A stretch of DNA of 64,000 bases from Arenicellales bacterium (GCA_965200545.1 CBDAUJ010000002.1:1288850-1352849), one strand, 5' to 3'. Positions 14,533 to 37,855 are shown, numbered from the stretch's first letter. Numbers and translations are program-made. Notes: generated by a model not told the origin, from the letters alone.

Positions 14533-14553
14533 GACTGAGGCTTAATCAGTTGT
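14533..14553 (+). repeat. candidate attL core (21-bp direct repeat)
   Basis: gactgaggcttaatcagttgt, identical to 51157-51177. The bases immediately flanking each copy differ. Confidence 0.7.
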
Positions 14554-14572: not shown

Positions 14573-14603
14573 TTGACACATTACAAATATTGTAATGTGT
14601 CAA
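14573..14603. repeat. perfect 31-bp palindrome (14-bp arms, 3-nt centre)
   Basis: ttgacacattacaa-ata-ttgtaatgtgtcaa, 20 bp inside the candidate attL and about 250 bp upstream of the small recombinase gene. Confidence 0.9.
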
Positions 14604-14856: not shown

Positions 14857-15507
14857 TTGAATCAATATAGACAACGTACTGTGTCAAACGCCACCAAAAA
14901 ATACCCAAACTGCGATGATTTGGGCCACTTGCTCGTGAGCCGTTTCGGGCGGAAATACCTTTCGAAAGAAGAGCGGCACCGATTTTTTGCCAGTGCGCGA
15001 CTAAGCGAAAAACCGGAATTGCAAACGTTTGCGCTGACCTTGGGCTATACCGGCGGAAGAATCTCTGAAATTCTTGCGCTTCGTGCCGGTGATGTGAGCC
15101 TGGAGAGAGCATCTGTTTTCGTCATTTCGCTTCGACGCAGCTACGAATCGTGGCGCGAGATACCGATACCGGAAGAATTCAACAGGGAATTGGAGTTGAC
15201 TCATCATCTGCGCCAGAAACAACTCAATGATGCGGATTCAAATACTCTGATTTGGAAATATTCTCGCTCGACGGCATACCGCCATATCACTAGAATCATG
15301 GCGCTGGCGCGAGTCAATGGAATTCAGGCAACACCTCAAGGATTGCGCCATAGCTTCGGAGTTTGTGCGGTTGAGGATGGTGTGCCGTTGCCGATTATTG
15401 CACAAGTGATGGGCCATATGAACTTGGATTCTGCGTCAGTCTACACAACCGCCACTGGCAATGAAGTTCGTGAATACTTAAAAAAAATGTGGCAGAATTC
15501 ATGCTAG
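14857..15507 (+). CDS. small tyrosine recombinase, catalytic domain only (FimB/FimE-like architecture)
   Basis: About 216 aa (TTG start uncertain). Catalytic signature GGRISE (Arg), LRHSF (H-x-x-R), GHMNLDSASVY (His...Tyr). There is no N-terminal SAM-like domain. Confidence 0.75.
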   Translation: MNQYRQRTVSNATKKYPNCDDLGHLLVSRFGRKYLSKEERHRFFASARLSEKPELQTFALTLGYTGGRISEILALRAGDVSLERASVFVISLRRSYESWREIPIPEEFNRELELTHHLRQKQLNDADSNTLIWKYSRSTAYRHITRIMALARVNGIQATPQGLRHSFGVCAVEDGVPLPIIAQVMGHMNLDSASVYTTATGNEVREYLKKMWQNSC

Positions 15508-15685
15508 CGTCTGATTATCTGTTCGCTGTCCACCGCGTAGATTCTTTGGGAAATATAGTTTTAGGTAGCCAGAGCCGCTATATCTTTGACTGAAACAATG
15601 TCCGGGCCAGATGCAAGAGCCGACCCGGATAAGAGTTAAATGAGGCTCTGTTTGGCTTGTTTGAAACAATGCCAATCAAATTGCG

Positions 15686-16597
15686 CTAGATGTTGTATTG
15701 ATCCAGTGTCGAGATCAATTCTCGGATATTTTCCAATTCTGGATGGATGTAGCGCATTGTTGTTTGCATAGTTGAGTGGCCAAGCAAGTTTTGGAGTTCC
15801 TTGTATTTTCCCTCTTTAGCCAGCTGGGTAGCAACTGTATGCCTTAAACGATGTGCAGAGATGCGGATGCCAGTGACCTGCGAAAGACGGTTGAAGAAAT
15901 TCGTAACTGTTGATAACTGCAGCTGATTTTTGCATCGATAGCGCGAATTGAACAAGCGAATGTCATAAACAAAACGCTCGTTGATATCAGCATCGAGGCC
16001 TAAACGTCTCAATGTCTCGGTTCGTATCTGCATTAGGCTATTGACTGCCGGAGTTGTCAGCGGAATATCCCAGCTCAATTTGGTTTTGCTGGAACGGGGG
16101 TCGAAAGTTATTTTTTTTTCGTCGAAGTCTATATCAGCCCAGCGCAAGCCAACTAACTGTTTGCGTCGCATGCCAGTGTAAAACAGAATTCGCACCACTG
16201 ACTTCCAGAACCAGTCTGGCTGAAAAATAGATTCTTTTGTATCCAGATACACCATGATTGCATGTAAATCAGCGATTCGAACAGTTTTGGGACGTGTTCG
16301 ATAGACTTTCTCGAAGTGATTTGTGCCAATCGGGTTGGAACTTAAGAGTCCTTCGCAAACTGCGAATCCCAAAAGAATACGCAAATGTCGCAGATAGTTG
16401 TTCAATGTAGACGGTTCGACTTGTCTAGCCAAAACTTTTTCAGACCATTCTTTGACCGTTTGCCTATTTACGTCTCGAACGTGCGTTACCTTCGTGTCTT
16501 TGACAAATAAGCGGGCGACGAACCGGTAGTGAAATTTGGTTTCGTTCGCCAGCTTGTTTGAGTCAACGTAATGTTTGGCTAGCGTTGATATTTTCAC
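15686..16597 (-). CDS. tyrosine-type site-specific integrase (XerC/D-sized)
   Basis: TGMRRKQL (Arg), AHRLRHT, LGHSTMQTTMRY. I place the start at the in-frame GTG at 16597, preceded by AGGAG 8 nt upstream. The ORF track extends to 16750. Confidence 0.85.
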   Translation of the reverse strand: MKISTLAKHYVDSNKLANETKFHYRFVARLFVKDTKVTHVRDVNRQTVKEWSEKVLARQVEPSTLNNYLRHLRILLGFAVCEGLLSSNPIGTNHFEKVYRTRPKTVRIADLHAIMVYLDTKESIFQPDWFWKSVVRILFYTGMRRKQLVGLRWADIDFDEKKITFDPRSSKTKLSWDIPLTTPAVNSLMQIRTETLRRLGLDADINERFVYDIRLFNSRYRCKNQLQLSTVTNFFNRLSQVTGIRISAHRLRHTVATQLAKEGKYKELQNLLGHSTMQTTMRYIHPELENIRELISTLDQYNI

Positions 16598-16631
16598 AAT
16601 AAATACTCCTAATTTAACTGAACATCTATTT

Positions 16632-16661
16632 CGTTGCATCGATCTATAGACTGATGCAACG
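16632..16661. promoter_or_regulatory. near-perfect 30-bp palindrome upstream of the integrase
   Basis: cgttgcatc-gatctatagact-gatgcaacg has 9-bp perfect outer arms and an inner tctataga palindrome. It lies 35 nt upstream of the proposed integrase start. Confidence 0.5.
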
Positions 16662-16856
16662 AGTAAGGCTGTAAATTTAGAATTTATTGCTATGAAAATG
16701 CAAGTCTTTTTTTGTGTATAGTTTCGATCGCGATACTTTCGTCGCTTCAAGAGTGAAAATGCAATTCAATATCGACTTGTTTTCTGAAAAACAGCAGGCA
16801 ACACACAAATTTTTGCAGTCGGTGCGTAGTTTGTAGGAAATTACGGCTTCGCATCG

Positions 16857-18407
16857 TCAAGGTCTCTTGCCCGTTCCCGGCATCAGTGTTTGTGCTCCGC
16901 TTTGAAATGCCGTATCCGAGCGGTTGCTGATTTGTGTCCAGCTTTGACCGAGTGAGCGCATTGCGGGCGCGCTGATAGCTCCGATCAGCACAAACCAACC
17001 CATCGGAAGAGTAATGTATGAGAACAAGGTAATCATGCTCAATACAATGTCCGCGGAGGTGCCGCTTCCGCCGAACTCCAGTATTGATGAATCGGGATAT
17101 AGGGTCTGCAGCAGTTTTTCGTCGAGGAACTCGGCTAACGCCCACAAGGCAGAGACAAATTTTAGGCAAAATAAAATCAAGACGATACGCACAATAATCA
17201 CCGGGTTGACCATCGCGTATGGAACGAGCAGAGGAATTGAGATATACACCAGCATCAGCATAAGTGCCTGCACCATAGGCAATCCAATCAGCACAAGTTC
17301 CATCACAACATGAAACAATGCAGACATGATCAGAGCTCCCATTGAGGCGATTATTTGCTGAATGCCATCCAGCGAAAAAATGCTATCCGAAAACCAGTAA
17401 ATTGAGTCGCCGCGGTCAGCGCGATTGGTCACGACCTGAGGTGTTTTGTTGATCAGGCGTCGCAGAAATCGATCTTCATGCTCCACAATTTTGCGCTGTA
17501 CCACTGTGGCATCGGTTCCATTGCTCGCTTTTGCAATCCGGTCCAAATCGCCCTGCAGCCACGGTGCACTAGTGTGCAATTGCGTGAGAAGCTTGGCTCG
17601 CAGACCGATCTCAGAATGTGTCCACCATAGGTCGCAATAGGGCTGACCAGGCAGTGCCATGTCGCTTTCCACAACACGCGCCCATGGTGACATCGCAGAA
17701 CTGGCATAGTAACCTGAACCGCATCTGTTGACATCATCACAGCGGCGATAATATCCAGCGGTGGTGAGAAATATATGCGAACCTAGCCAGTCAACTGACT
17801 GCATGATGCTGTCAGGCTTGGGCGGATTGGTTGCGTTTTGGTACTTGGCCAATGACGGCTCGTAACAATCCCGCCGGAATGCTCGCAGTTCTGTGAGCAA
17901 TTGCTCATCCGTCAGCTGCACCTGTCCGATTCTCATCAACGCAGGCCGCAGACCCGCGGGCTGTCCTAGCCAATCAATCGCCTTGATAACTGATTTCGTG
18001 AACAGGGCAGAAACCTCAATCGTCAGCCACCATAAAAGCGGCAGTTTGAATTGTTGAGCATATTCGGCATCAATCCGGTAGGGGAACTGACTGCTGTCGG
18101 TTGCTGCCGCAACTTTATCGTCGCCTCGAACATACTGAATATCGCCGCCTTGAATTGGAATTGCCGGCAAGAAGCACAAAATCAGGACAACAGTCACGAT
18201 TGCCACATCCTGTTCCATTCGACGCAGGGAAACTGGGGCGGCATTGCGCGATTCCTGACTTCGTGTGGGCTGGATCCAGTTTCGATATAAGGCAATTCCG
18301 ATTGGCAGGAACACTAGCCCGCTTGCTGTGAGCACTTGCGCGATACTGTTGGCGATGTGCCACCCAATCAGCGTGGTTGCAAACTCATAGTAAGAGTGAA
18401 CTTTCAC
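16857..18407 (-). CDS. traG: conjugal transfer protein TraG (ICE Mpf membrane protein, TraG N-terminal-domain type)
   Basis: 516-aa polytopic membrane protein at the end of the Mpf operon, following the PFL_4711-like gene as in PFGI-1/ICEclc-type elements. Confidence 0.65.
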   Translation of the reverse strand: MKVHSYYEFATTLIGWHIANSIAQVLTASGLVFLPIGIALYRNWIQPTRSQESRNAAPVSLRRMEQDVAIVTVVLILCFLPAIPIQGGDIQYVRGDDKVAAATDSSQFPYRIDAEYAQQFKLPLLWWLTIEVSALFTKSVIKAIDWLGQPAGLRPALMRIGQVQLTDEQLLTELRAFRRDCYEPSLAKYQNATNPPKPDSIMQSVDWLGSHIFLTTAGYYRRCDDVNRCGSGYYASSAMSPWARVVESDMALPGQPYCDLWWTHSEIGLRAKLLTQLHTSAPWLQGDLDRIAKASNGTDATVVQRKIVEHEDRFLRRLINKTPQVVTNRADRGDSIYWFSDSIFSLDGIQQIIASMGALIMSALFHVVMELVLIGLPMVQALMLMLVYISIPLLVPYAMVNPVIIVRIVLILFCLKFVSALWALAEFLDEKLLQTLYPDSSILEFGGSGTSADIVLSMITLFSYITLPMGWFVLIGAISAPAMRSLGQSWTQISNRSDTAFQSGAQTLMPGTGKRP

Positions 18408-18414
18408 GCTTCTA

Positions 18415-19707
18415 TCAGCGGAGGAGCTGCGGCGGGCGCTGCCGCAACGGCAGTTGCGGCGTTTTCATTGTCTCGTGAGTTTCCAAGACTTGCTTGATTG
18501 TGCCCGAAATAATGCGACTGCTTAGTTCAAATTCAAACACCGCACGCTGGATTTCCTTTTCTAGCAAATCGATTTTTTGCTCGATTGTTGCAGTGACGGC
18601 GCCAACGCTTTGTATATTGGGTTCCATCATGCCGCTCAGCAGCAGTCGGCGTGCAAGAAAAGCCTTGTTGATTGATTGTGACAGTGCGATTTCGTTGGCG
18701 ATGCGCGGTGTCAGATAGTTCCTATCTGGCAAGTCGCGCAACGCATCAACCAGTGGTGCCGATACAACTGAGTTATCGCCCAGCAATTGAATGTCATCCG
18801 CCGACACGGGCCGGTTGGAGTACACGAGTTTTTGTAGCCGCTCATGAAATTTTGATGTCTCGCGCGCGATCTTGGGCAGCAGCCCGACTCCAGCTACGGT
18901 AAAATCGTGTTCCCCGTTTTGTATTCGATAGTCGCCGAGCACATCGACCAGCCATTGACTTGCCGCCTCTGGATTTGGCCACGTTTTGGACAGTGTGGTC
19001 GCATCATCATTTGTGAATATCCTGCCGGTTCCAGCGCAATTCGGAGATTCTCCCAGCAACAGGCACCACCCCGCGGCAACCGTATCTTTGATGAGCCATA
19101 TGGGTTCTTTGCCGCGACAGCCCGCTGCGTGACCGCCGATCCACTGAATGCACCCGTCGAACTGATCGACTTGCTTTTTGGCTGCTATTGCGGTTCGGCC
19201 ACTGGCGGTTTGCTGCTGCCAAGATTGAGCTCGCGCGGTTCGCGTCATGCTGTGAAATGGATTATTGTTACTAGCCAAAGCAGCCATTGAATTGTCGCAT
19301 GATGCAACCGCTCGGTTCCATTTGTCTTCCACTCTGACAAGGTAATGCTGCAACAGTTGGCACGCTGTTGGTTTGGCTCGGCACAAAATCGATCCTGGCA
19401 GTGCGGTCGCGGCAGCTTGCGAAATGTCGTCCAAAGTGGTCAAAGTGTCATTGAGCCGACTGCGGAAAATTGATTGAATTTCAGACTCTGCGTCAAATCG
19501 ACTACATACACGACTATGCTTCAAATTGTTTTTCGCCAGGCCGCCTAGACTGTCATATTCAGATGCTGGCTTGCTAACTGCTTGATCACCGCCGAGCGAA
19601 TAGTAAAGAGGGATGTTTTTGATTGTCGTCTGTGCGGATGCAACACCGCTCAACAGCGTTGCCGAAGCCAGCAACGACAAATAAATACGATATATGCAAC
19701 TGCTCAT
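18415..19707 (-). CDS. ICE Mpf periplasmic protein (PFL_4711/TIGR03755-like by position)
   Basis: 430 aa with a signal peptide (LLSGVASA|Q). Assigned by synteny next to traG. Confidence 0.55.
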   Translation of the reverse strand: MSSCIYRIYLSLLASATLLSGVASAQTTIKNIPLYYSLGGDQAVSKPASEYDSLGGLAKNNLKHSRVCSRFDAESEIQSIFRSRLNDTLTTLDDISQAAATALPGSILCRAKPTACQLLQHYLVRVEDKWNRAVASCDNSMAALASNNNPFHSMTRTARAQSWQQQTASGRTAIAAKKQVDQFDGCIQWIGGHAAGCRGKEPIWLIKDTVAAGWCLLLGESPNCAGTGRIFTNDDATTLSKTWPNPEAASQWLVDVLGDYRIQNGEHDFTVAGVGLLPKIARETSKFHERLQKLVYSNRPVSADDIQLLGDNSVVSAPLVDALRDLPDRNYLTPRIANEIALSQSINKAFLARRLLLSGMMEPNIQSVGAVTATIEQKIDLLEKEIQRAVFEFELSSRIISGTIKQVLETHETMKTPQLPLRQRPPQLLR

Positions 19708-19942
19708 TTACAAAGATTCAATTTTCCGTGACGAATTCGGCTTGCCAAGCTTTCGAATGAGAATACAAAGGCCGCAGGAATTTGCAAAAATACAATCTGA
19801 TTTCCGGTATGATGAGTTTTTTTGAATCACGTGAAAAACCGCGGTGAATTTCAGCTTTCGAGCATGATCGCAAGCAATGAATCGTATCTATCAGTCAATA
19901 TAATGAGAGTTTTGCTGCCGTTATCCACATTGCCGATTTAAG

Positions 19943-21094
19943 TTGAACATCAAACATACGCCAACAACCGCACTTGCGGTCGAATTGATCCAACGTCCTT
20001 CAGTAACTCCAGATGACGCTGGGTGTCAAGCCATCATCGCCTCGCGTCTTGCACCGCTCGGTTTTAATATTGCATCGTTCGACAGCGCGGATGTAAGCAA
20101 TTTGTGGGCGCGTCGAGGCGAATCGAGTCCGTTGTTGGTATTTGTCGGACATACCGACGTTGTGCCACCCGGCAACGAGTCAGAATGGAACTATCCTCCT
20201 TTTGCAGCTGCGCTTGCGGATGGCATGGTGCATGGACGCGGAGCGGCCGATATGAAGAGCAGTGTGGCGGCCATGGTGACTGCTTGCGAACGATTTTTTT
20301 CTCACGCAGAGTCATTTCAAGGCTCGGTCGCCTTCTTGATTACTTCTGATGAAGAAGGAGAAGCAATAGATGGCACCCGAGTGGCGCTGGAGAAATTGGC
20401 TCAAGACAATGTTCAGATCGATTACTGCCTGGTAGGAGAGCCGACATCAGAGCAGCGATTGGGAGATGTCGTAAAAATCGGCCGTCGCGGTTCGCTGAGT
20501 GGAGAACTGAAAATATTTGGGATCCAAGGGCATGTTGCTTACCCGCATTTGGCTGACAATGCCATTCATCGAAGCGGGGCGCTGATTGATGCGATATCAA
20601 GATTGGAGTTTAGCGATGGCGACGAGTTTTTTCCGGATACAACCTGTCAGATTTCGAATCTGCGTGCAGGCGCCGGTGCTGGCAATGTTATTCCCGGTGT
20701 CGCTGAATTGAATTTGAACTTCAGGCATTCGCCGAACAGTCAGCCGCAGAATCTAATCAACGCAGTTGAGTCAATTTGTCATCGCTTGGACTTGAGATTT
20801 GAGTCAAGATGGGAAGTTAATGCGGAATGTTACCGAACCACCGAAACGGAGTTCGCTGACATCGTCTGCGAAGCCGTGTCCGACATCGTGAACGTAACAC
20901 CGCAGCGCTCGACTGCTGGCGGAACATCCGATGGACGCTTCGTTGCCAAATATGGAGCGCAAGTTGTTGAATTTGGACCGCTTAATGCAACGATTCACAA
21001 GGTCGATGAGTGTCTTGATCTTGAGGATTTGCAGCAGCTGTCAGCAATTTACGAACAGATTTTGAGGAGAATGAATGAAAAGCCAAATGAATAA
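19943..21094 (+). CDS. dapE: succinyl-diaminopimelate desuccinylase
   Basis: Collinear with E. coli DapE as I recall it (RPSVTPDDAGCQ, GHTDVVPPG, GRGAADMKSS, ITSDEEG, CLVGEPTS, GGTSDGRF). TTG start. Confidence 0.9.
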   Translation: MNIKHTPTTALAVELIQRPSVTPDDAGCQAIIASRLAPLGFNIASFDSADVSNLWARRGESSPLLVFVGHTDVVPPGNESEWNYPPFAAALADGMVHGRGAADMKSSVAAMVTACERFFSHAESFQGSVAFLITSDEEGEAIDGTRVALEKLAQDNVQIDYCLVGEPTSEQRLGDVVKIGRRGSLSGELKIFGIQGHVAYPHLADNAIHRSGALIDAISRLEFSDGDEFFPDTTCQISNLRAGAGAGNVIPGVAELNLNFRHSPNSQPQNLINAVESICHRLDLRFESRWEVNAECYRTTETEFADIVCEAVSDIVNVTPQRSTAGGTSDGRFVAKYGAQVVEFGPLNATIHKVDECLDLEDLQQLSAIYEQILRRMNEKPNE

Positions 21095-21112
21095 ATTTTG
21101 TGGGGTTGAGTC

Positions 21113-22321
21113 ATGAGCGATGCCACTCAGCAGTCTCTGATTCAAGTTGGGCACGAGTCCTACGCACCGAATTACAATCCACGGCCGGTCGTATTTGACC
21201 ACGGTCAAGGTTCTAGAATCTGGGACGTGGAAGGACGCGAATATTTGGATTTAGGAACCGGCATCGGTGTGAATTGTCTGGGGCATCGAAATCCACAACT
21301 TATTGAGGCCATCAATGCGCAGGTGAATAGACTGTGGCATACCAGCAATATTTATTTTTCAGAGCCGCCGATTCGACTGGCGGCAGAGATTATCGGCAAT
21401 ACGTTTGCCGATAAAGTCTACTTTTGCAATTCCGGTGCGGAGGCCAATGAGGCGGCTATCAAAACAGTTCGCAAATATGCGGCGGACAATTTTGGTGCAA
21501 GCAAGCACGTCATTTGCACTTTCAAGGGCTCGTTTCACGGGCGCACGATCGGTGCATTGACTGCGACAGCACAGCCAAAATATCACCAAGGTTTCGAGCC
21601 TTTGCCACAAGGTTTCCGCTATTGTGAATTTAACGATATTGACAGTTTGCGGAAAATGATGGGCACTGATGTCTGTGCTGTCATTCTTGAGCCCATCCAG
21701 GGAGAGGGTGGAATTCGTCCTTTCTCGGTTGAGTTTCTCCAGCAGGCACGGCAACTTTGCAACGAATACGAGGCCCTACTGGCTTTCGATGAGGTGCAAT
21801 GCGGAATGGGCAGAACGGGAAAGATTTTTGCCTACCAATGGGCGGATGGTGTTGAGCCGGATCTTGTTACGATTGCCAAGGCACTGGGCGGCGGACTGCC
21901 GATTGGCGCATTGCTGCTGTCTGGCAAAGTTGCGAACACCCTGGGATTTGGCAGCCATGGCTCAACATTCGGTGGAAATCCGGTCTGCTGCGAGGCGGCT
22001 CGCGTTGTGCTGAAGACCGTCGTGGATCATTCCTTCCTTGCTGAGATAGCGCATAAAGGCGAATTATTGCAAGCCCAACTGAGCCAGATGCAACGACATC
22101 ACAGCATGATTGAAGAAATCCGCGGCCGCGGATTGATGATTGGAATCAAACTGTATGGCGCAAGTGCAGGTGAAGTTATGCAAGCCTGTCTGGAAAATGG
22201 GCTGCTGGTTCTTCAATCTGGCGCTGACGTTATTCGGCTGTTGCCCGCATTTACCATTAGTGCGGATGAAATCGCCTGCGCTATGGAGATATTGAATAAC
22301 GTTTTGGCGAGTATTGATTGA
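21113..22321 (+). CDS. argD: acetylornithine / N-succinyldiaminopimelate aminotransferase
   Basis: 402-aa class-III PLP aminotransferase (FCNSGAEANEAAIK, DEVQCGMGRTGK, TFGGNP). Confidence 0.85.
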   Translation: MSDATQQSLIQVGHESYAPNYNPRPVVFDHGQGSRIWDVEGREYLDLGTGIGVNCLGHRNPQLIEAINAQVNRLWHTSNIYFSEPPIRLAAEIIGNTFADKVYFCNSGAEANEAAIKTVRKYAADNFGASKHVICTFKGSFHGRTIGALTATAQPKYHQGFEPLPQGFRYCEFNDIDSLRKMMGTDVCAVILEPIQGEGGIRPFSVEFLQQARQLCNEYEALLAFDEVQCGMGRTGKIFAYQWADGVEPDLVTIAKALGGGLPIGALLLSGKVANTLGFGSHGSTFGGNPVCCEAARVVLKTVVDHSFLAEIAHKGELLQAQLSQMQRHHSMIEEIRGRGLMIGIKLYGASAGEVMQACLENGLLVLQSGADVIRLLPAFTISADEIACAMEILNNVLASID

Positions 22322-22440
22322 CTGGCAAACCTGGTCAATGCATGCTTGGAGTCGGTACTGTTGCGACCGCCGCCTCAGCCGCTGGAACCTTGATGCGACA
22401 TGGTCCGAGGCTTCGCGAAGAGCTTAATCGTTATACAGGC

Positions 22441-23568
22441 TTATCGGGCAGAATCCAGCGCTCTGCAGTCTTCGGCTTGCCACCCGACCGAAATGACTTG
22501 CCCGTAGTCAAGTCGATCCCGAGTGTGAGAATTCGGGATCTTAATGATGAAATCGGATTGTCCGCAGAGACTGACACGGGTGCGGACGTGATCACCAAGG
22601 TAGATGACCTCTTCTACTGTGGCATCTAGTTCGTTTTCGCAAGTGCCAGGTTCTGGCCCGACGATAACACGCTCAGGCCGCAGCGACAAAGTTGTGGCAG
22701 ATTCTAGCCCATCAATGTTGACTACCTTGGCGGATACCATTGATTGATCTTTCATTTCGACAGCACAACGGCCATTGGTTACTTCTTTGACCTTCCCATG
22801 CAATACATTGTTCTCGCCGATAAATTGCGCAACGAATGAATTTTCGGGTTTTTCGTAAAGAATTCCGGGTGGATCCAATTGCTGAATAATTCCATCGTTG
22901 AATACAGCAATTCGGTTGGACATGGTCAAAGCTTCGCTTTGGTCATGGGTGACATAAATCACGGTTACGTCAAGATTTTCATGAATATGCTTGATTTCAT
23001 ACTGCATCTGTTCGCGCAACTGCTTATCCAAGGCGCCGAGAGGCTCGTCCATGAGAACAAGTTTGGGCTGAAAAACCAGCGCTCTTGCCACGGCAACACG
23101 CTGCTGCTGTCCACCCGACAGTTGTCCAGGCAAGCGTCCGCCGAACTCACCAAGCTGTACCATTGAAAGCGCATCATCGACTTTCTGCTCAATTTCAGAA
23201 TTCGGCAGTTTTCTGACTTTCAGTGGGAAGGCAAGGTTTTCGGCGACTGTCATATGCGGGAAAAGCGCATAATTTTGGAACACCATACCAATATCGCGTT
23301 TATGCGGCGAGACATTGTTAATGGACACTCCGTCCAAATAAATTTCACCATGGGTAGCTGTCTCGAATCCTGCCAGCATCATAAGACAGGTCGTTTTACC
23401 TGACCCAGATGGGCCAAGAAGCGTGACAAATTCACCTTTTTCGACGGATAGATTCAGGTTTTTGACGACCAAAGATTCACCATCGTAACTTTTCTGCACG
23501 TCTTTAAATTCGACGTAATGCTGTTGTTTTTCGTCCATAGCCTGACGTTCTGTTAGTGAATTTGGCAA
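22441..23568 (-). CDS. ABC transporter ATP-binding protein, PotA/CysA-like with C-terminal TOBE-type domain (orphan)
   Basis: Walker A GPSGSGKTT, signature LSGGQQQRVA, Walker B LVLMDEP. No permease or binding-protein gene is nearby. Confidence 0.85.
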   Translation of the reverse strand: MPNSLTERQAMDEKQQHYVEFKDVQKSYDGESLVVKNLNLSVEKGEFVTLLGPSGSGKTTCLMMLAGFETATHGEIYLDGVSINNVSPHKRDIGMVFQNYALFPHMTVAENLAFPLKVRKLPNSEIEQKVDDALSMVQLGEFGGRLPGQLSGGQQQRVAVARALVFQPKLVLMDEPLGALDKQLREQMQYEIKHIHENLDVTVIYVTHDQSEALTMSNRIAVFNDGIIQQLDPPGILYEKPENSFVAQFIGENNVLHGKVKEVTNGRCAVEMKDQSMVSAKVVNIDGLESATTLSLRPERVIVGPEPGTCENELDATVEEVIYLGDHVRTRVSLCGQSDFIIKIPNSHTRDRLDYGQVISVGWQAEDCRALDSAR

Positions 23569-23891
23569 CGAATTCCGTACGGAAACATTTATATGTGGAA
23601 GAAGTATAAAACAGGCAAAGCAGAAAATATTGTTTTTGTGAATTTGTTTGCCGCAGTTGAAGTTGCCTGGCGTTCAGTTTCGGCAATCAGCCGGTCGCAA
23701 AATTATTCCGCCGTCGATGTGGCGATTTGCCTGAACGAGCTATGCCGCGGTTACATCCAGTAGCTCATCCGTCCGCGATGAAACTTCATTTAGAAAAAAT
23801 TATGCGGCGGGCATGATGGACACCAGCTGCATCAGGTCTTCATTTTTATGATTGTCAGTTGATGCGTTCAAGCAAACTCATGGATACGCCT

Positions 23892-24482
23892 TCATATCAG
23901 GAATTGATAGATTTCCATCCCGCCATCCCAAATCATGACTGCGGCGACGATGGCGATAATGGCGATGCCAAGATATCCCAGCCAGCGGTAGCGGTCCAGA
24001 ATACTTGCGATATAGTTGGCCCCGATCAGCATCAGGACTATTGACAGCGCTAAACCAAAAACTAAGATCAGTAAATGCTCGCGGGCGATTGCTGCAACCG
24101 CCAGCACATTGTCCAGTGACATAGAGATATCGGCGATCAAAATTCGATACAGTGCTTGTTTGAAGGTTACAGGCGCGTTGTCGGCGGCTGTCTTCAGCGC
24201 GCTCGCATGGTGGTCTAGCTGCATGTCTGCATAGAGTCTCCATGCGATCCAGACCAGAAGCAATCCACCGATTAGCAGGAGCCCTGGAATTTTGAGCAAT
24301 TGAACTGTAGTCACAGCGAAAGCGATTCGAAACAGAACGGCTAAACCGACTCCGATCAAAATAACTTTTTTGCGCTGCTCTTTTGGCAAGCTTGATGCGA
24401 CAAGCCCGATCGCGATCGCATTGTCGCCCGCAAACAGCAGATCTACAAGAACGACTTGGATGAACGTGCTAAATTCTTGCAT
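23892..24482 (-). CDS. TerC/YjbE-family integral membrane protein
   Basis: 196 aa with duplicated (F)AGDNAIAIG / SLDNVLAVAAIA motifs typical of the TerC family. Confidence 0.8.
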   Translation of the reverse strand: MQEFSTFIQVVLVDLLFAGDNAIAIGLVASSLPKEQRKKVILIGVGLAVLFRIAFAVTTVQLLKIPGLLLIGGLLLVWIAWRLYADMQLDHHASALKTAADNAPVTFKQALYRILIADISMSLDNVLAVAAIAREHLLILVFGLALSIVLMLIGANYIASILDRYRWLGYLGIAIIAIVAAVMIWDGGMEIYQFLI

Positions 24483-24719
24483 ATGACTTGGAAATTGTTG
24501 TTCACAATCCGCGAGTAAAGCGCGTAGTATAAGGTTTGTTGAAGGTGTCGTTTACCCAAGAAAGCGAAGTTGAACTCGAAAGTCTTGCGCGAAGTGCGTT
24601 TGGAAAGTTGAAATGATGAGCGATTCAATTCAGAACAGCTTTTGCAGTCATGGAATGTCGAAGTGACTTTTCGCTGTCAGTAGCGCGCGGCTGGAACGTT
24701 ATCTGTTTCACTGTGTGAA

Positions 24720-25775
24720 TCAGAAATCAAATGCTTTGATGAGCTTGCCTCCAGGGTGAACACAGCATTTGTAGTTTCCCCAGTAGTTCCATATATATTT
24801 TCGGTCTGCCGCAATTTTATTTTCATCAAAATCCCGCTGCTGCCCAAAAGTTTCACACGAATTGACAGATTTGGGAAGAATCATTTGCCATTTGTCTTTT
24901 TTTTCATTGGAGCGAGGAAGCCATTGCTGCCAGGTTTGGGTGCGACAGATCGGTCCTGAGTCACCGCGGGAATCAGTCTCCCATGACCCGCCGGACAAAT
25001 TGCATTCGCTTTCATTTTTGGCTCTGGTATTGCCACGCGCGACGCGATTGCTGAACTTGCTCGAGAGCGGCCTGACAATGTGCCCCGATTGATCATGAAA
25101 TATCAGATCAGCGGCGCGCTGAGCCGACACAGCTGCACCTTTTGCTGAATTGCTCTGAATGAGAAATCCGATTCGTGGGTACACCGAGCCCCACGTGAAG
25201 TGCGGCCACTGGCCGATTTCGCGCACCCCTGGTGTAATAGATTCCATTTTTGTCGCATCTGCGCCAGCTCCGCGCCAAGATACATGATCTTCTACAGAAA
25301 TGAAGTAGGGAAAGAACGCCTTGGCTGCGGATTTGCAAAGAAACCGGCCAAATTTCAATCGACCGACAGCAGGTGAGCCAATCGCATCCACTTCATTGAA
25401 TTGAAGCGAATCTGATTGACGATTCGATTGGGTAACGCCAGACAAGATGCCGCCGGAGATTTCGTTTGAATTGTCGAAAACTTGGTAGTCCAGCCCACTT
25501 TGCCATGGCGGTTCGAATGCATTCGGATACACTTGAAATACCACATCCGGCAGGCGATGTGAAATCCTCGGCGTGGTTACAATGAAGCAGCCAAAGATCG
25601 AGCACTTCAGCCAAATACAGATGCCAGAAATCTTCCAATCCAAGCATGACAGACTTTGCGAGCGTGCAATCAAATCCGTTGTAGTGATGGAATTTCCAGA
25701 AGCCGAAATATTGCATGCAGTGATGTACAAGCAAATGCAAACTGCCCGAATAATGGTATGCGAATTCAACTTCAT
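24720..25775 (-). CDS. ICE Mpf protein (PFL_4710/TIGR03756-like by position)
   Basis: 351 aa with a signal peptide. It overlaps the upstream PFL_4709-like gene by 4 nt. Confidence 0.55.
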   Translation of the reverse strand: MKLNSHTIIRAVCICLYITACNISASGNSITTTDLIARSQSLSCLDWKISGICIWLKCSIFGCFIVTTPRISHRLPDVVFQVYPNAFEPPWQSGLDYQVFDNSNEISGGILSGVTQSNRQSDSLQFNEVDAIGSPAVGRLKFGRFLCKSAAKAFFPYFISVEDHVSWRGAGADATKMESITPGVREIGQWPHFTWGSVYPRIGFLIQSNSAKGAAVSAQRAADLIFHDQSGHIVRPLSSKFSNRVARGNTRAKNESECNLSGGSWETDSRGDSGPICRTQTWQQWLPRSNEKKDKWQMILPKSVNSCETFGQQRDFDENKIAADRKYIWNYWGNYKCCVHPGGKLIKAFDF

Positions 25776-26197
25776 GGCTCGATCAAGCGCTTGATTGCAG
25801 AGGCTTCGTAGATGATATGCCTATCGTCGAGCACCGCAGCCGGCAGCCGAACGATACGCAGATCCGACAGCAGCATGCGAGCGCGAATCGTCTTCTGGAG
25901 TTGCTGTTTCAACCAAGGCAAATTGGCATCGATTCGTCGCACTGCTTCAACAGCGGCCGCCTGCGGGTCTGCGGGAAGATCAGTTGCAAGCCGATATTCG
26001 ATTCTTTGCTGCAATGACAAGTCGAACAGTTCGATTTCGGGCCGTGCCTTGAACCGCTGAATCATGGCATGCGAGAAATTTTCTGGGACATAAAATAACT
26101 TGATGCTGAGATCGCCGGCAGTGCTCTGCGTACCCGGCAGCAATAGAATCAAACCCGCGACTGCAGCTTTCCCAAACCTCCATTGCATTGACCGCAT
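25772..26197 (-). CDS. ICE Mpf protein (PFL_4709/TIGR03757-like by position)
   Basis: 141 aa with a signal peptide, immediately downstream of the conjugative ATPase. Confidence 0.5.
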   Translation of the reverse strand: MRSMQWRFGKAAVAGLILLLPGTQSTAGDLSIKLFYVPENFSHAMIQRFKARPEIELFDLSLQQRIEYRLATDLPADPQAAAVEAVRRIDANLPWLKQQLQKTIRARMLLSDLRIVRLPAAVLDDRHIIYEASAIKRLIEP

Positions 26198-26200
26198 TGA

Positions 26201-29035
26201 TCAGGTTTTCCGGCTTTGCCTGATTATTTCCGCAATTTCGTATGCAGCATCGATTTCAGAAATGTTCTTTTTCTTCATCATTTGAATTCGAAATGCTTTT
26301 TCAGATTTTTCGGTTTGACTCAATGCCAAAGCTAAAGCCGGTGGTGCGTTTCTGAAGAGTGTAAGCAATTTCGGTGTGATGATCGTGCCTTCAGTGTAGC
26401 GTCCTGGGTGCTTTCGTGCGGATTCAAGAAGACTTTTTTGCTCTTCGGTAAGGGACTTGAAGCGTCCGATCTGCTCAATTTCATCTTTGTCCAATGCAAG
26501 ACAGTACCACCATTCCGGCTGGTTAAGCAATTCTTTCGCATTGTCGGGGAACTGTCGAATATTCTGGGTTGCAATCCAAAGCCATGCACCAAAGGTTCTC
26601 CACATGGCAGAAATACGATTCAAATAGGGCGAGATCAGCGGATTTTGGAGCAGCACGTGCGCTTCGTCAATGACCACGATAGTCTGACGATCATGGTTTT
26701 CACTGGTTTCTACTTCATTGGCAATTATCGAAAATAAACCAGTCAATGCAACCGCAAGGCGATCTTCGTAGCCGCGACGCGCAAGCAAATCAAGCTCAAC
26801 GACAGTTACGTCAACTGCGGGCCACAGTTCGCCTTCACGATCAAATAATTCACCATTCAGACCAGTGCAAAAAACATTTACGGCGCTGGCCATGCGACTC
26901 GCTCGCTGCCTTTGTTCGGAACTGACGCGAAGGTCTCCTGCGCGGTGCCCTTCGGCCATGGACCGCAACGCGTAGACCAAGTCTGAGGTGACAGTTTGTT
27001 TTCTGCCCTGAGAGTGTGAATGTCTGGCTGCTTCAATCAGTGCCCCACGAATTAGATCCAGATCGTCACGACGAAGGTGTTGCTCTTCGCTGGGCTGGCC
27101 GCCTGTGATCATCAGCCGTGCCTGCAGCTCCATTTCTCCCAAAGGATCACGATAGCGATTTTGTCTGCTGGTCGCGTCCTCATCGTGAGCCGAGTTCAGC
27201 AGCGTTTGAGCGTTCTGAAAGGGCGGCAGGGATACGTTGTTCTTGCCATCAATTCGGACCCGGTGGACCGAAAGCCCTTGGCGCTCGCAATGAGAAGCGA
27301 GAAGACCGAATGTTGGCAGCGCCGACAGCAAAATGATTTTTGGACGATGCACCGCCAGCGTATGTAGCAGGAAGTAAATCAGAAAAGCGGTCTTGCCAGC
27401 GCCGGTGGGGCCAAGTACAACTGAATGTGCATTTTTCTCTCGATCTTTTGCATTGAGCGGGTCGAACATGATTGGTTCGGCGCCGCGGTTGAAGAGCAGA
27501 CACCCTGAGTATCCAGTCCCCGTTGAGCGGCCGAATACGGGCAGCATGCGTGCGATGTGGCTCGCATACCATAATCGGGCACGCCGCGTATACGGCCGCG
27601 AGTCCTGCTCCGGCTGGAATCCAAATGGCAATGCGCGTACATAACTGTCAAGTGCAATCGGGTCATAGCGAGGCAAAATGGGCTTCAGCTGATGGGCAGT
27701 CAGCAGTCCAATTGTTCTTTCCGTTCGCTTGTTCAGTTCTTGAAGATTTTCACCGAATACATAGACACCTGAAAATACTCGAAAAATCGGATTGCCTTTC
27801 GCGATTTCTGTGAGTGCAATATTAGACAAACTGCGTTTTTCCGTCGCGGCGGGATCGTCGCCGACTGAATTCCTGCGCACTTTCATGACTTTTTCTTCGA
27901 TTTCATTTTGCGGTGAAAAAACGATCGTCATTGACCAGATCGATTGATCTGGAATTTGATCCCATAGCGTTCCGGTCGAATCTCCAAAGAGCCGTTCGCG
28001 GGTCAAATGCCCGACATTCGGTTCACCGACCAAGTCGTCGATGGTAATGAATCTGCTTGGACAGCCGCGAAACCACCAGATTCCCGGCTTTTTCCAAGTC
28101 CAGGGGGCGGCTCCATGCAGCGCGGCTCGCGCAATGTCCGACCCTGCCGATTGACTTACGAGAGCCATCGAGCGCTGCGCTGTATCGTGAACCCATGGAT
28201 TGGCATCAAGCAATTCCCATGTATGCCTAAAGGGGGAATCTTTCTCTGGATGGGGAACAAACCAAAACGTCAGCCATTCGTAGAGTTCTTTGGCACCGGC
28301 TGGAATCAGTCTCACATCGGCTTGAGCGAAGGTGCTGACAAGTTGCTCAAGAATCTGCTCGCCATCGTCATTATCGTCGGGGCGGCTGTAGAGTGAATCG
28401 CGCCAGATGCAAAGTCGGATCCGTCGCCGTTTGCCACGCCATCTGCCGTCGGTTGCAGTTGAATCAGCAAATAGTCCGCCGACAGAAGTCAGGTCGTTTA
28501 TGTGTTCTTGCAAAGTCTCAAACCAATGTTCGGAAAAACTGTTGTGCTGGCAGTGACTGCCGGAATATTGACGGATCGTGTCAGCGAGCCTATGACGGAT
28601 GCAGTCAATATCGTCTTGCACAAACCATTGCATGATCCATGGCTTGCTTGACAATTGCGGCAGGCATTGGGTAATTGCTCGACACAGTCGTGTGTGCATG
28701 CTCTTGAGCATGTCTTCGCTTTTTGCGTCAGCGTTTGCACATTCGACTTCAAACATTCTGCCGACACTTGTAAAGTCCTGCAAGCCGATGCACTGATTGC
28801 CGAGGTCAAGCCTCGGAGCGAGCAATTCTGTAAATGAACGGGTGTCTTTCACCATTTTCGCGAAGATTGGCTGGGGCTGCAGCTGCGGTTCGAGATATTC
28901 GCGAATGGTCAGCGGCTCACAGCCATTGCCATTCCATTCGCTTAAAGGCATTTCCGTTGACAGGAACGCCTTTGGATTGTCAGTGCGCTGGGCTAGCCAG
29001 TTTCGGATCCAGTGGATATTGTGTTTTAGACTCAT
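26201..29035 (-). CDS. traC: conjugative transfer ATPase (VirB4/TraC-like, PFL_4706 class)
   Basis: 944 aa with Walker A GPTGAGKT and Walker B-like VVIDEAH. The size and position match the ICE-type VirB4 homologue. Confidence 0.8.
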   Translation of the reverse strand: MSLKHNIHWIRNWLAQRTDNPKAFLSTEMPLSEWNGNGCEPLTIREYLEPQLQPQPIFAKMVKDTRSFTELLAPRLDLGNQCIGLQDFTSVGRMFEVECANADAKSEDMLKSMHTRLCRAITQCLPQLSSKPWIMQWFVQDDIDCIRHRLADTIRQYSGSHCQHNSFSEHWFETLQEHINDLTSVGGLFADSTATDGRWRGKRRRIRLCIWRDSLYSRPDDNDDGEQILEQLVSTFAQADVRLIPAGAKELYEWLTFWFVPHPEKDSPFRHTWELLDANPWVHDTAQRSMALVSQSAGSDIARAALHGAAPWTWKKPGIWWFRGCPSRFITIDDLVGEPNVGHLTRERLFGDSTGTLWDQIPDQSIWSMTIVFSPQNEIEEKVMKVRRNSVGDDPAATEKRSLSNIALTEIAKGNPIFRVFSGVYVFGENLQELNKRTERTIGLLTAHQLKPILPRYDPIALDSYVRALPFGFQPEQDSRPYTRRARLWYASHIARMLPVFGRSTGTGYSGCLLFNRGAEPIMFDPLNAKDREKNAHSVVLGPTGAGKTAFLIYFLLHTLAVHRPKIILLSALPTFGLLASHCERQGLSVHRVRIDGKNNVSLPPFQNAQTLLNSAHDEDATSRQNRYRDPLGEMELQARLMITGGQPSEEQHLRRDDLDLIRGALIEAARHSHSQGRKQTVTSDLVYALRSMAEGHRAGDLRVSSEQRQRASRMASAVNVFCTGLNGELFDREGELWPAVDVTVVELDLLARRGYEDRLAVALTGLFSIIANEVETSENHDRQTIVVIDEAHVLLQNPLISPYLNRISAMWRTFGAWLWIATQNIRQFPDNAKELLNQPEWWYCLALDKDEIEQIGRFKSLTEEQKSLLESARKHPGRYTEGTIITPKLLTLFRNAPPALALALSQTEKSEKAFRIQMMKKKNISEIDAAYEIAEIIRQSRKT

Positions 29036-29433
29036 TGATTTGTCACTTCTTCAGGCAGCGCGTACTCAACTTTTTCGTAGAGCTGAAACATCGTAGAATA
29101 TCCTGGAATTGGGGCGCCGTCTGCGTTAAGGTGCGGAAATACGTACATCACGATTGTTGGATTCGGCAGGCGGGGGAAACGAACAGTCAACTCGTTATAG
29201 ACTTCTCTTGTGTAACCGGCAAGGTGCGAGGCTCCATCCGGCATCGGATGCGACGGCCGTGAAGATCGGCTTTGAGTGGCATGATGCTGATCGTAAATGT
29301 CTTCCATGGTTTGCGTACCCTCAGGGATTGGATGATGAGACTTGAATGGTGGCGAGCAAGCCGAAATTCCCAGCCCCAGACTAATCAAGACCGCCTTGAA
29401 TAGAAGCAAATTTGGCTGTATTGTTGCTGACAT
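29032..29433 (-). CDS. conjugative transfer region lipoprotein (TIGR03751-like)
   Basis: Lipobox LGISAC. The start is moved to the internal Met (MSATIQPN...). It overlaps the ATPase start by 4 nt. Confidence 0.55.
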   Translation of the reverse strand: MSATIQPNLLLFKAVLISLGLGISACSPPFKSHHPIPEGTQTMEDIYDQHHATQSRSSRPSHPMPDGASHLAGYTREVYNELTVRFPRLPNPTIVMYVFPHLNADGAPIPGYSTMFQLYEKVEYALPEEVTNQ

Positions 29434-30700
29434 ATCGAATTCTCCTGCCAGAAGGATTGTGATCAATCAGAATCGCTTCTTCAATATGGATGGCAACTCT
29501 CTTACCGGCAGGTATGTAGATTGCATCGAAGGAAGTCAATTCACGGTCGCGGAGCCATTGCGAAATCTCCGACAGGGACTCGCGAGTGGCGTAGCCTGCA
29601 ACGAACTGATTTAGATCGCCGGTCACAGCCGTTGCAGTTTGACCAGTGGCCGGATCAAATCGACTCTCTGTCTGCGCAGTTGATAAGGCATCGGCAGTCG
29701 CCTCTGCGGTGTTGACAAGAGTCGACTGCGTCAGATACTGAAGTGCATTTGATTTCAGTTCGCCGGTGATACATGGATTGCCGAATTGATCGGATATCCA
29801 GCCGAGACCACGGGAAGTTCCAGAGGGGTCCGCTTTTAGCTGGATGGTTTGAATCGAACCGTCTTGAAAGATGAATGTTGCTGTGTCAACATTTCCAGAT
29901 ACGCACGATAAGGCGAAGTCTCCTCTGGCAGTTCCTGCCCACAGCATGCCGGCGAGTTGTGGAATTCGATGTCCGTTGGCCGCCAAATTTGCCGCACCAA
30001 CGATCACTTTGAATCTCCATGGGTCGTGAATTTGGCCATTGACCGGAATTCTCCCGATCAGCGCGGTCATCGCGGTTGCATCCAGAAGGGTAGTGGTTGG
30101 CGGTATCGTGTAATGCGCCTGAACGGCATTCTCAATTGTGGAGATATCAGAAGCTGTTGCAACGATATCTGTTTCAAGATTCAAATAATCGACACTGACT
30201 ACCGTATCGTCAAAGGATGCGGTGTCAGAGACACCATCGGAGTCGTGCCATACAAAATCCTGGGAGTCATGATGTGGCTGGATATACGCAGCGTAGTCGG
30301 GAGTTGAATTGTTTTGATGTTCCAGATCTGCTATTCGCGCCAGCAGCTGGTCAATTGCATTGTTCAGCTCATCGATTTGCGATTGACTGTTGTGGCCGTC
30401 AACTTTGTCTGAAATCTGTTCCAGCATTGTGCTCATCTTTTGCTGAAGTTGACTGCGCTGCGATTGCTCATGCACTTGCTGGCTCTCCAGAGCCTGTTCA
30501 AGATTGATGATCTTGGTCGCGACAGCACGAACCTCTTCGGCGGCATTATCGCGGTCCGCCAATAGTGCATTGGGGTCGTCACCTCCTGATTGATTTGCGA
30601 GAAAGTTGGTTTCGAAAGGGTAGTCATCAGACACTCCGAACCACACGAAACCGCCGATTGCCAAGGCGGAGACAAGCAAGAATATTGGGAGAAGTTTCAA
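29381..30700 (-). CDS. ICE Mpf protein with N-terminal TM and coiled coil (PFL_4705/TIGR03752-like)
   Basis: 439 aa. Assigned by topology and gene order. Confidence 0.55.
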   Translation of the reverse strand: MKLLPIFLLVSALAIGGFVWFGVSDDYPFETNFLANQSGGDDPNALLADRDNAAEEVRAVATKIINLEQALESQQVHEQSQRSQLQQKMSTMLEQISDKVDGHNSQSQIDELNNAIDQLLARIADLEHQNNSTPDYAAYIQPHHDSQDFVWHDSDGVSDTASFDDTVVSVDYLNLETDIVATASDISTIENAVQAHYTIPPTTTLLDATAMTALIGRIPVNGQIHDPWRFKVIVGAANLAANGHRIPQLAGMLWAGTARGDFALSCVSGNVDTATFIFQDGSIQTIQLKADPSGTSRGLGWISDQFGNPCITGELKSNALQYLTQSTLVNTAEATADALSTAQTESRFDPATGQTATAVTGDLNQFVAGYATRESLSEISQWLRDRELTSFDAIYIPAGKRVAIHIEEAILIDHNPSGRRIRYVSNNTAKFASIQGGLD

Positions 30701-30712
30701 AAGTATGCACGT

Positions 30713-31513
30713 TCAAAGCTGTGGAATTTGGAAAGGAAAATCCGAAATCAAGATTGCGACTGTGGTGTCATTCGGCTTATCCTTCGCTTGCAGCTTCGGG
30801 TGGACAAACGCAGCGGTTCTCCAGCTGCCGCGAATCTCGCGAGGATCAAGTGTCACGGACTCCGTCAAATTGTTCCTGATTTGTACCGCGGTGACGTAAT
30901 GATGCAGAGACTGCCAGCCTGCGATTGCCCAGGCATTGATACCGCCAGAACAAATTGATGGTCGGCGCCGGCCGCAGCGGAAGAGATCAAACAACTCGTC
31001 ATCAACAGACACTTGAACCACACCGGGCAGTTCGTTGAGAAGCCGCTTTGGTGAATAGAGCTGCTGAATGGCCCATCGGGTAAGCTCCACAAAACTGTAG
31101 CTCGGCAGGGTGTTGACGGATTGGCCAGCAACCGTATCCGGTTTGGGTTCGATGACGACCGCGGTCTCTGGAATGTCGAGTGTAACCGCGCGAATAGACA
31201 GAACTATCCGCCCCAGCGTTTCGGTGATCACAACCATGCGCCGATAGTCAAATGGTTCCTGTGCAGTCAGCCAGAGGCTGTTGCCGATTACTTGAACTTT
31301 GAGCAGTCGATTGACATCGCTCGGTATGCCAACGCGAATATTGGTCGCAGAGGGTACGGTAATGCGTCGTTCGGCATCCACTTCAATATCAATATTCACG
31401 GGTGTGCCAGTCCATTGAATTGTCACTGAATCTGCCGTCTGAACCTGCACCACAAGCACTGCGAGCGACAGTAGCTGAAAAATGCTTAATACAGATCGTA
31501 CGCGAAAGATCAT
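30713..31513 (-). CDS. ICE Mpf periplasmic protein (PFL_4704/TIGR03749-like)
   Basis: Signal peptide MIFRVRSVLSIFQLLSLAVLVVQVQTA. The start at 31513 makes an ATGA overlap with the upstream stop. Confidence 0.55.
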   Translation of the reverse strand: MIFRVRSVLSIFQLLSLAVLVVQVQTADSVTIQWTGTPVNIDIEVDAERRITVPSATNIRVGIPSDVNRLLKVQVIGNSLWLTAQEPFDYRRMVVITETLGRIVLSIRAVTLDIPETAVVIEPKPDTVAGQSVNTLPSYSFVELTRWAIQQLYSPKRLLNELPGVVQVSVDDELFDLFRCGRRRPSICSGGINAWAIAGWQSLHHYVTAVQIRNNLTESVTLDPREIRGSWRTAAFVHPKLQAKDKPNDTTVAILISDFPFQIPQL

Positions 31514-32127: not shown

Positions 32128-32130
32128 GCT

Positions 32131-32882: not shown

Positions 32883-32883
32883 A

Positions 32884-33105: not shown

Positions 33106-33108
33106 GTT

Positions 33109-37836: not shown

Positions 37837-37855
37837 TTTTCTCTCCCTAAGTCAT

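Follow-up and report, generated by a model that had tools for sequence, protein, structure and literature searches.

The window analyzed here is a stretch of 64,000 nucleotides from an Arenicellales bacterium (GCA_965200545.1, CBDAUJ010000002.1:1288850-1352849), and it holds a chromosomal island that shares much of its gene order with integrative and conjugative elements (ICEs) of the MPF_G type. Within the mating-pair formation (Mpf) genes of this island, between those encoding the TIGR03755 and TIGR03756 proteins, re-annotation with Pfam and NCBIfam placed four housekeeping-type genes: dapE, an argD-family gene, a solitary ABC ATPase gene, and a gene of the TerC/YjbE family (Table 1). A four-gene block at this junction had been described in a first-pass annotation made from the sequence of the window, and both the re-annotation and the presence of the same junction in related genomes bear this description out.

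The predicted DapE protein contains both the M20 catalytic domain (PF01546) and the dimerization domain (PF07687), and aligns over its full length with Escherichia coli DapE (PDB 7lgp), retaining the HTDVVPPG, GRGAADMK, SDEE, VGEP, GHVAYPH, and NATIHK motifs. The nearest PDB structures to the ArgD protein are the acetylornithine aminotransferases 6w7x, 2ord, and 4jev/2pb0, the last pair corresponding to the bifunctional ArgD/DapC. As judged from their sequences, dapE and argD match their families at the level expected of true orthologues, with the substrate class of the transaminase (acetylornithine/succinyl-diaminopimelate type) being a predicted assignment. Exact-sequence look-ups for the DapE and ArgD proteins of the window returned no recorded match, and neither did megablast of positions 18400–26200 against E. 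coli genomes and the plasmids in PLSDB.

The ABC ATPase resembles the importer ATPases of the PotA, MsmX, and MalK type, and we have placed its start at the ATG at 23538 (365 amino acids) and not at the TTG at 23568, following its closest relative. No permease or binding-protein gene lies nearby in the window. It is the best-conserved protein of the region, with 75–93% identity in the clade described below and a ratio of nonsynonymous to synonymous divergence (dN/dS) of 0.03–0.11. It may act as a shared, "multitask" ATPase in the manner of MsiK/MsmX. A yybP-ykoY riboswitch that might serve the TerC/YjbE gene was sought in Rfam, with no match in the window at the gathering threshold or between 19600 and 24800 at E ≤ 1. 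On these assignments, all four block genes would serve ordinary cellular roles.

To the left and right of the block, canonical gene order and orientation are retained, in agreement with the earlier reading of an insertion and not an inversion. Scanning of the block edges for repeats likewise upheld the earlier statement that they display no insertion sequence (IS), recombinase gene, or meaningful flanking repeat, as only short repeats at chance level were noted; terminal inverted repeats, a target-site duplication, and flanking IS copies were not found there either. An assembly artefact was ruled out, as numerous independent assemblies, closed chromosomes among them, share this structure.

The junction in other elements and across the clade

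In canonical MPF_G elements, the junction occupied by the block is narrow. The TIGR03756 and TIGR03755-type genes lie 10–20 bp apart in a Methylophaga plasmid and in a Pseudomonas veronii element, and are directly adjacent in 48 of the 49 PLSDB records with both genes among the matches listed (adjacency being called from tblastn segments 103–244 nt apart, allowing for unaligned N-termini). The exception is the Nitrogeniibacter plasmid NZ_CP071322.1 (locus L036 in our numbering), with the order TraC, hypothetical, TIGR03755, hypothetical, TraG_N, DsbC, TIGR03757, and TIGR03756. In the nearest type IV secretion systems (T4SSs) found outside the clade, which come from metagenomes (L039/L040; TraC 46% identical), TraU precedes TraC and TIGR03755 directly follows it. 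The junction is usually tight, yet it is a module boundary that has been rearranged in other MPF_G lineages. No dapE-type gene was found at the junction in any of the other MPF_G elements examined. The two flanking genes are, as the first-pass annotation had assumed, normally neighbors, and its own alternative that related ICEs routinely carry cargo at this position does not hold, the junction being empty in canonical ICEs. In-operon cargo does occur in the MPF_G family at another junction, since in the P. veronii element NZ_CP142042.1 (L034, 3394–13465) ~9 kb of unrelated genes (GNAT, SEL1-repeat, and hypothetical) separate TraC/DsbA from TIGR03757.

Scanning a TIGR03755 protein profile against one genome per GTDB species returned 21 loci, of which 18 belong to records titled "MAG: Arenicellales bacterium" and the other three to gammaproteobacterial metagenome-assembled genomes (MAGs); many of these genomes are closed chromosomes of 3–4.4 Mb. 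By tblastn, the four genes occur in identical order and orientation at the identical junction in every locus long enough to show it; one contig, of 2.4 kb, covers no more than dapE and a portion of TIGR03755. The same junction was also seen in further metagenome contigs from ENA and Logan, several of them closed long-read chromosomes. Contigs bearing the best DapE homologues, from 89% down to 56% identity, carry the integrase(s), TraG_N, TIGR03755, dapE, argD, ABC, TerC, TraU, DUF1525, and TraC, and most also have ppx, a gene outside the island, at the left. Identity to the window declines in parallel across relatives for ppx (58–90%), for the block proteins DapE (56–89%), ArgD (55–90%), ABC ATPase (in the range given above), and TerC (52–92%), and for the T4SS proteins TraG_N (47–88%), TIGR03755 (40–85%), TraU (44–84%), and TraC (58–71%).

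Three relatives carry extra genes in the spacers inside the block or at its edge (L001, 13606–19893; L029, 12369–13774; L030, 13555–20810). Among these are N6_N4 DNA methyltransferase genes, T5orf172 (GIY-YIG-like) genes, and small hypothetical genes, which lie between ArgD and ABC, ABC and TerC, or TerC and TraU.

Neighbor-joining trees built separately from ppx, from the block proteins (four), and from T4SS proteins (three) agree in their groupings. When the window is compared to its closest relative, synonymous divergence (dS) is ~0.41–0.65 for ppx, both recombinases, TraG_N, TIGR03755, DapE, ArgD, ABC, TerC, and TraU, with dN/dS of 0.06–0.16 over the same ten genes (TraG_N 0.11, DapE 0.11, ABC 0.058, the short recombinase int2 0.08, and the island integrase 0.056). 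In five further independent genome pairs, dN/dS is 0.03–0.28 and dS is of similar magnitude within each pair. DapE and ArgD (dN/dS 0.06–0.24) are constrained broadly like ppx (0.05–0.13). The comparison of G+C content at third codon positions (GC3) that the first-pass annotation had called for was also run: at a GC of ~0.50 and a GC3 of 0.45–0.60, the block, the T4SS genes, and the flanking chromosomal genes are indistinguishable, and only an IS1595-family transposase differs (GC3 0.81). Taken together, these sequence comparisons argue that the block insertion is a single old event, and that island, block, and chromosome have co-diverged since.

As for the origin of dapE, we looked at the nearest DapE from outside the clade. 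A homolog search with the TIGR03759-like protein of the island returned only two proteins, and PilQ was used as the query instead. The closest DapE on a contig absent from the PilQ matches (55% identity) lies in the order map, glnD, ..., dapC (class I/II), dapD, arsC, dapE, with no T4SS near that cluster. This fits relocation rather than an extra xenolog, and the clade dapE appears, on this comparison, to have been moved or copied out of a dapC-dapD-arsC-dapE-type cluster and paired with an ArgD-type transaminase. Each clade chromosome occurs once among the best 120 DapE matches, a list that extends down to 52% identity and takes in gammaproteobacterial DapEs from outside the clade at 53–55%. 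A native paralog from a duplication in the clade ancestor should be at least as similar as these non-clade proteins, and none is among the best 120, which speaks indirectly against a second copy of that kind. An aminotransferase gene to the right of the island (53426–54844) was considered as a second argD and rejected, as it encodes an omega-aminotransferase (PRK07036).

Missing transfer genes and the standing of the island

In canonical relatives, TraD and TIGR03747 lie between TIGR03759 and RAQPRD, and a MobH/TraI relaxase lies between TraG_N and the integrase. The corresponding positions in the window comprise ~150 bp (TIGR03759-like to RAQPRD) and ~100 bp (TraG_N to integrase), with no open reading frame (ORF) of fitting size, and two divergent relatives display the same reduced layout. 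The TraD, TIGR03747, MobH, and TraI proteins of canonical elements gave no tblastn match in the window or in any clade locus, nor did the canonical SLT transglycosylase turn up in the island. The island has the mating pore, the integrase, and the direct repeats of an MPF_G ICE, and is without a coupling protein and a MOBH relaxase within the element. Nor does it behave as a horizontally mobile element: it is in all clade loci, the groupings of ppx, block, and T4SS proteins are congruent, and dS is similar within pairs. From its gene content, the island is most likely not self-transmissible and would represent an immobilized, probably exapted "MOBless" T4SS island.

Compared to ICEs of the PAPI-1/pKLC102/ICEclc/ICEHin1056 type (MPF_G, the "PFGI-1 class"), the island shares the order ParB-like, DUF2857, STY4528-like, pilL-pilV, TIGR03759, and RAQPRD, followed by TIGR03746/49/52/51, TraC, TIGR03757/56/55, TraG_N, and a tyrosine integrase, with direct repeats at both ends. 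Unlike them, it is without TraD, TIGR03747, and MobH, carries four housekeeping-type genes between TIGR03756 and TIGR03755, and is fixed and co-diverging with the chromosome across the clade where theirs is a patchy distribution. To our knowledge, MPF_G ("GI-type") T4SSs are known only as the conjugation machines of ICEs, and we know of no characterized non-conjugative MPF_G system. Examples of MOBless T4SSs are Bordetella Ptl, Brucella VirB, and Helicobacter ComB. The island is like such loci in being a VirB4-containing T4SS cluster with no relaxase in the locus, and unlike them in being of the MPF_G type and in having no identified effector or substrate. This agrees with the definition of a MOBless T4SS as a VirB4-containing cluster without a relaxase; in the same survey, MPF_G systems were found with MOBH relaxases only and almost exclusively in ICEs, and an integrase beside a MOBless T4SS was considered a possible sign of a degrading ICE or a mobile secretion island (Guglielmini et al. 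2011, PMC3158045).

The reading that we favor, and consider probable, is one ancient insertion of the block into an ICE-derived island of the PAPI-1/ICEclc type (MPF_G), which has since been inherited vertically without TraD and MobH. The insertion would have entered the 10–20 bp TIGR03756–TIGR03755 junction in or before the common ancestor of an uncultured gammaproteobacterial clade (mostly titled Arenicellales), after which the whole island of ~36.6 kb would have passed down with the chromosome, with its two tyrosine recombinases, the 21-bp repeats at both ends, the mating-pore genes, and the type IVb pilus retained under purifying selection. Since the lineage appears to have its working copy of dapE, and probably that of argD, in the block, selection would likely act against deletion or excision of the island (lethal or auxotrophic, should these be the sole copies), and this would help explain its retention in every clade member found. 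Such anchoring by putatively sole dapE and argD genes is plausible; however, purifying selection on ~30 T4SS and pilus genes calls for more than anchoring, and the machinery must still be useful, whether in a role other than conjugation or in concert with transfer genes located elsewhere. A fuller proposal is that the clade has domesticated the MPF_G T4SS and type IVb pilus for a non-conjugative role (adhesion, contact-dependent exchange, or DNA uptake), without coupling protein or relaxase and under purifying selection since its ancestor, that the system is locked in by the only dapE and argD genes having been relocated inside it, and that it is still competent for excision via its att repeats and two recombinases. 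We put this forward tentatively and, taken as a whole, regard it as rather doubtful.

The block also bears on how the Mpf genes may be transcribed. As dapE and argD lie on the opposite strand, the Mpf cluster must be split into separate transcription units, in line with the earlier suggestion that traG and the PFL_4711-like (TIGR03755) gene are uncoupled from the Mpf operon. Given that genes diverge from it, the 235-bp spacer between TIGR03755 and dapE must contain promoters for both dapE-argD and TIGR03755-traG. In the model we propose, dapE-argD would form a single plus-strand unit transcribed rightward from this spacer, which would also drive TIGR03755-traG in the leftward direction; TerC and the ABC ATPase, on the Mpf strand, would be expressed by read-through from TraU or from promoters of their own, leaving the Mpf cluster in two units (TraC...TraU and TIGR03755-TraG). 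The spacer is conserved with the closest relative only, and a weak promoter-like site on its minus strand (19748–19721) is at chance level. Despite the uncoupling, traG and the TIGR03755 gene display purifying selection and no decay (dN/dS 0.06–0.19).

Several observations weigh against this account. Scans for promoter and terminator consensus sequences returned counts equal to shuffled expectation, and alignment of the block spacers across the clade revealed no shared motifs past the closest relative, except a weak TATACT-like element upstream of TerC, such that the proposed transcription units are drawn from gene arrangement. The trees are simple neighbor-joining trees on p-distances, and the gene-to-gene distance correlation is moderate (Spearman 0.37–0.86). 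A dapE paralog of less than ~52% identity would escape the list of best 120 matches, which bears on the anchoring. A coupling protein and relaxase may sit elsewhere in these genomes or be of an unrecognized type, and the kept, concertedly evolving end repeats and conserved integrases suggest that the island may still excise, contrary to its description as immobilized. In L030, the island and block are present with MTTB, BKACE, and CBS genes in place of ppx on the left flank and with no int2; either the island or the chromosome is rearranged there. In L020, a decayed second TraG_N in two pieces (15599–16661; residues 83–168 missing) lies between int2 and ppx, and suggests the remnant of a second related island from a past tandem insertion at the same site. 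The L020 remnant and the L030 flank would mean that related elements were once active at this site.

Three other explanations were weighed. The first-pass annotation had proposed that an active, self-transmissible ICE recently captured essential genes, with element loss becoming lethal and the mobile element thereby stabilized. In its favor, the block does separate Mpf genes that otherwise adjoin, the dapE and argD assignments are sound, and the integrases and exact end repeats are still present; even so, this model is largely refuted by the conservation of the arrangement throughout the clade, down to 56% DapE identity. What had been read as a recent or unusual capture in this genome is clade-wide and co-diverging with the chromosomal flank, with matching dS and GC3 and congruent tree groupings, and the supposed active, mobile ICE is an island in which, both here and in the related loci, the TraD and MobH relaxase found in canonical elements are missing. 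We consider the model highly improbable, and the notion of stabilizing a mobile element is largely moot, since the island has neither TraD nor a relaxase and behaves as chromosome.

Alternatively, the block could consist of supernumerary paralogs or xenologs beside chromosomal dapE and argD, conferring a dosage or condition-specific benefit, with the island kept for its T4SS and pilus alone. Clade genomes might also keep the dapC-dapD-arsC-dapE cluster seen with the nearest non-clade DapE, and the block transaminase is of the ArgD type and not the DapC type of that cluster; against this stand the single occurrence of each clade genome among the best 120 DapE matches, the chromosome-like constraint on DapE and ArgD, their equivalog-level scores, and the identity of the other class-III aminotransferase in the window as an omega-aminotransferase and not an ArgD. 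We judge this explanation unlikely. It is very doubtful that the block is functionally tied to the secretion or pilus machinery and kept for co-regulation (by supply of diaminopimelate and peptidoglycan, by metal loading through TerC, or by the ATPase as an energizer). Such a tie would suit the strict conservation of the linkage over long divergence, the ABC ATPase being the best-conserved protein of the region, the position of TerC and ABC on the Mpf strand, and the lack of a detected canonical SLT transglycosylase. However, these families have no known link to T4SSs, no other MPF_G element examined carries them, relatives tolerate unrelated genes inside the block (the methyltransferase and T5orf172 genes), and the conserved synteny is equally explained by inertia after embedding.

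The separate kinds of locus that are combined here (decayed or domesticated ICEs, MOBless T4SSs, and core-gene relocation) are already known. Core genes have been relocated to chromids, and complementation of dap genes is used to stabilize plasmids in biotechnology. The island would resemble these in that an element of mobile origin cannot be lost without killing the cell once it carries an indispensable biosynthetic gene, and differs in that the carrier is an integrated island and not a replicon, with the essentiality and sole-copy status of dapE and argD being putative. The hot spots of SXT/R391 are sites of variable DNA inside ICE backbones. As in these, and as with the P. veronii cargo, foreign DNA is tolerated here among conjugation genes with the backbone order intact; unlike them, where cargo varies among elements, the content is invariant in the clade, while 48 of the 49 other MPF_G elements have nothing at the junction. 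A literature search on T4SSs in Arenicellales, and on dapE or essential genes in ICEs, found nothing relevant.

If the favored reading is true, purifying selection in at least 21 species-level genomes would mark an MPF_G T4SS without relaxase and coupling protein as a natural candidate for exaptation. The locus would then clearly illustrate how core biosynthetic genes moved into an island derived from a mobile element can make that island irreplaceable, and offer a testable case of ICEs becoming permanent chromosome. There is also an implication for annotation, as ICE-finding tools would label these loci as ICEs or "degenerate ICEs" and dapE and argD as "cargo", when they are probably core genes of the lineage.

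Island ends, insertion sequences, and surrounding genes

Table 1. Features of the island and its block in the window (positions counted from the first nucleotide of the window)
Feature	Position	Strand	Evidence or remark
IS1595-family copy, 1298 bp	8914-10211	inverted relative to second copy	100% identical to second copy
Left 21-bp direct repeat GACTGAGGCTTAATCAGTTGT, candidate attL	14533-14553	.	exact pair; contains palindrome ACTGA-N7-TCAGT
int2, short tyrosine recombinase, catalytic domain only	14857-15507	+	Pfam Phage_integrase; XerD/XerA-like in NCBIfam; in nearly all relatives
Island tyrosine integrase	15686-16750	-	homologous to integrase of P. veronii MPF_G element
TraG_N-domain mating-pair protein	16857-18407	-	Pfam PF07916
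TIGR03755/PFL_4711-like Mpf gene	18415-19707	-	243 bits; left border of block
Divergent spacer between TIGR03755 and dapE	19708-19942 (235 bp)	.	conserved with closest relative only
dapE, succinyl-diaminopimelate desuccinylase (predicted), TTG start	19943-21094	+	TIGR01246 474.6 bits (cutoff 361.8); NF009557 500.5 (cutoff 284)
argD-family class-III aminotransferase (predicted acetylornithine/succinyl-diaminopimelate transaminase type)	21113-22321	+	TIGR00707 489.1 bits (cutoff 410)
Solitary PotA/MalK/MsmX-type ABC-importer ATPase, TOBE_2 domain	22441-23538	-	Pfam/NCBIfam; start revised
TerC-family membrane protein, YjbE subfamily	23892-24482	-	TIGR03717 193.3 bits (cutoff 134.8)
TraU/TIGR03756 (PFL_4710-like) Mpf gene	24720-25775	-	TIGR03756 above cutoff; right border of block
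Rest of MPF_G mating-pore cluster	25772-34495	-	TIGR03757, TraC/VirB4, TIGR03751, TIGR03752, TIGR03749, TIGR03746, small membrane proteins, RAQPRD, TIGR03759-like
TraC/VirB4 ATPase	26201-29035	-	TIGR03744, 863 bits
Type IVb pilus genes PilL, N, O, P, Q, R, S, PilV-like (510 amino acids), PilU peptidase	34440-46047	-	complete set
IS1595-family copy, 1298 bp	38889-40186	-	100% identical to first copy
ArdC-like, STY4528-family, DUF2857, ICE-type ParB genes	46090-50925	-	right end of island
Right 21-bp direct repeat GACTGAGGCTTAATCAGTTGT, candidate attR	51157-51177	.	exact copy of left

The island of ~36.6 kb (14533–51177) is bounded by the exact 21-bp direct repeats, of which there are two matches in the window and zero expected by chance. 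The left copy is kept at the same place in 15 related loci. In OZ241916.1, where both island ends were captured, the two copies agree with each other at 20 of 21 positions, and the pair differs from that of the window in the spacer at both ends together, the pattern expected of att sites. An operator role is an alternative reading, given the position of the right copy 232 bp from the start of parB and of the equivalent site in a relative ~20 bp upstream of parA. Beside parB, at 50926–51156, no tblastn match to parA (CbiA-family) was found in the window, and the gene is present in L031 and L032. A perfect 14-bp inverted repeat, TTGACACATTACAA-N3-TTGTAATGTGTCAA, lies at 14573–14603, 20 bp inside the left repeat and ~250 bp upstream of int2, and may be a regulatory or recombinase accessory site.

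Translation of the island integrase probably begins at the GTG at 16597 (giving 303 amino acids, as in relatives). Among the Mpf families, TIGR03744, 03746, 03749, 03751, 03752, and 03756 scored above cutoff and TIGR03755 and 03757 below it, with RAQPRD and TraG_N also present. The 510-amino-acid ORF of the pilus cluster was considered as a hidden relaxase and rejected, having a prepilin leader like that of PilS, and we have instead assigned it as PilV-like.

The two IS1595 copies lie 28.7 kb apart and, with a GC of 0.63 compared to ~0.50 for the genome, represent a recent invasion. The first adjoins birA, whose longest ORF it overlaps at the start; the second lies between pilQ and pilR, is absent in relatives, and leaves pilR nine amino acids shorter than in a relative. 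The latter copy is potentially polar on the pilus/T4SS operon, and the pair is a potential substrate for inverting half the island. An inversion between the copies was ruled out, as the pilQ-IS-pilR order is collinear with relatives.

On the chromosome, gshA, ilvD, ispG, birA, and ppx lie to the left of the island, and an HpaB cluster, tRNA-Leu, tig, clpP, and clpX lie to the right. The HpaB cluster, just past the right repeat (51485–56963, plus strand), encodes an HpaB-type flavin monooxygenase, RidA, the omega-aminotransferase PRK07036, and a fusion of an OYE-type flavin oxidoreductase with a pyridine-nucleotide disulphide reductase, and may represent an amine or aromatic catabolic cluster.

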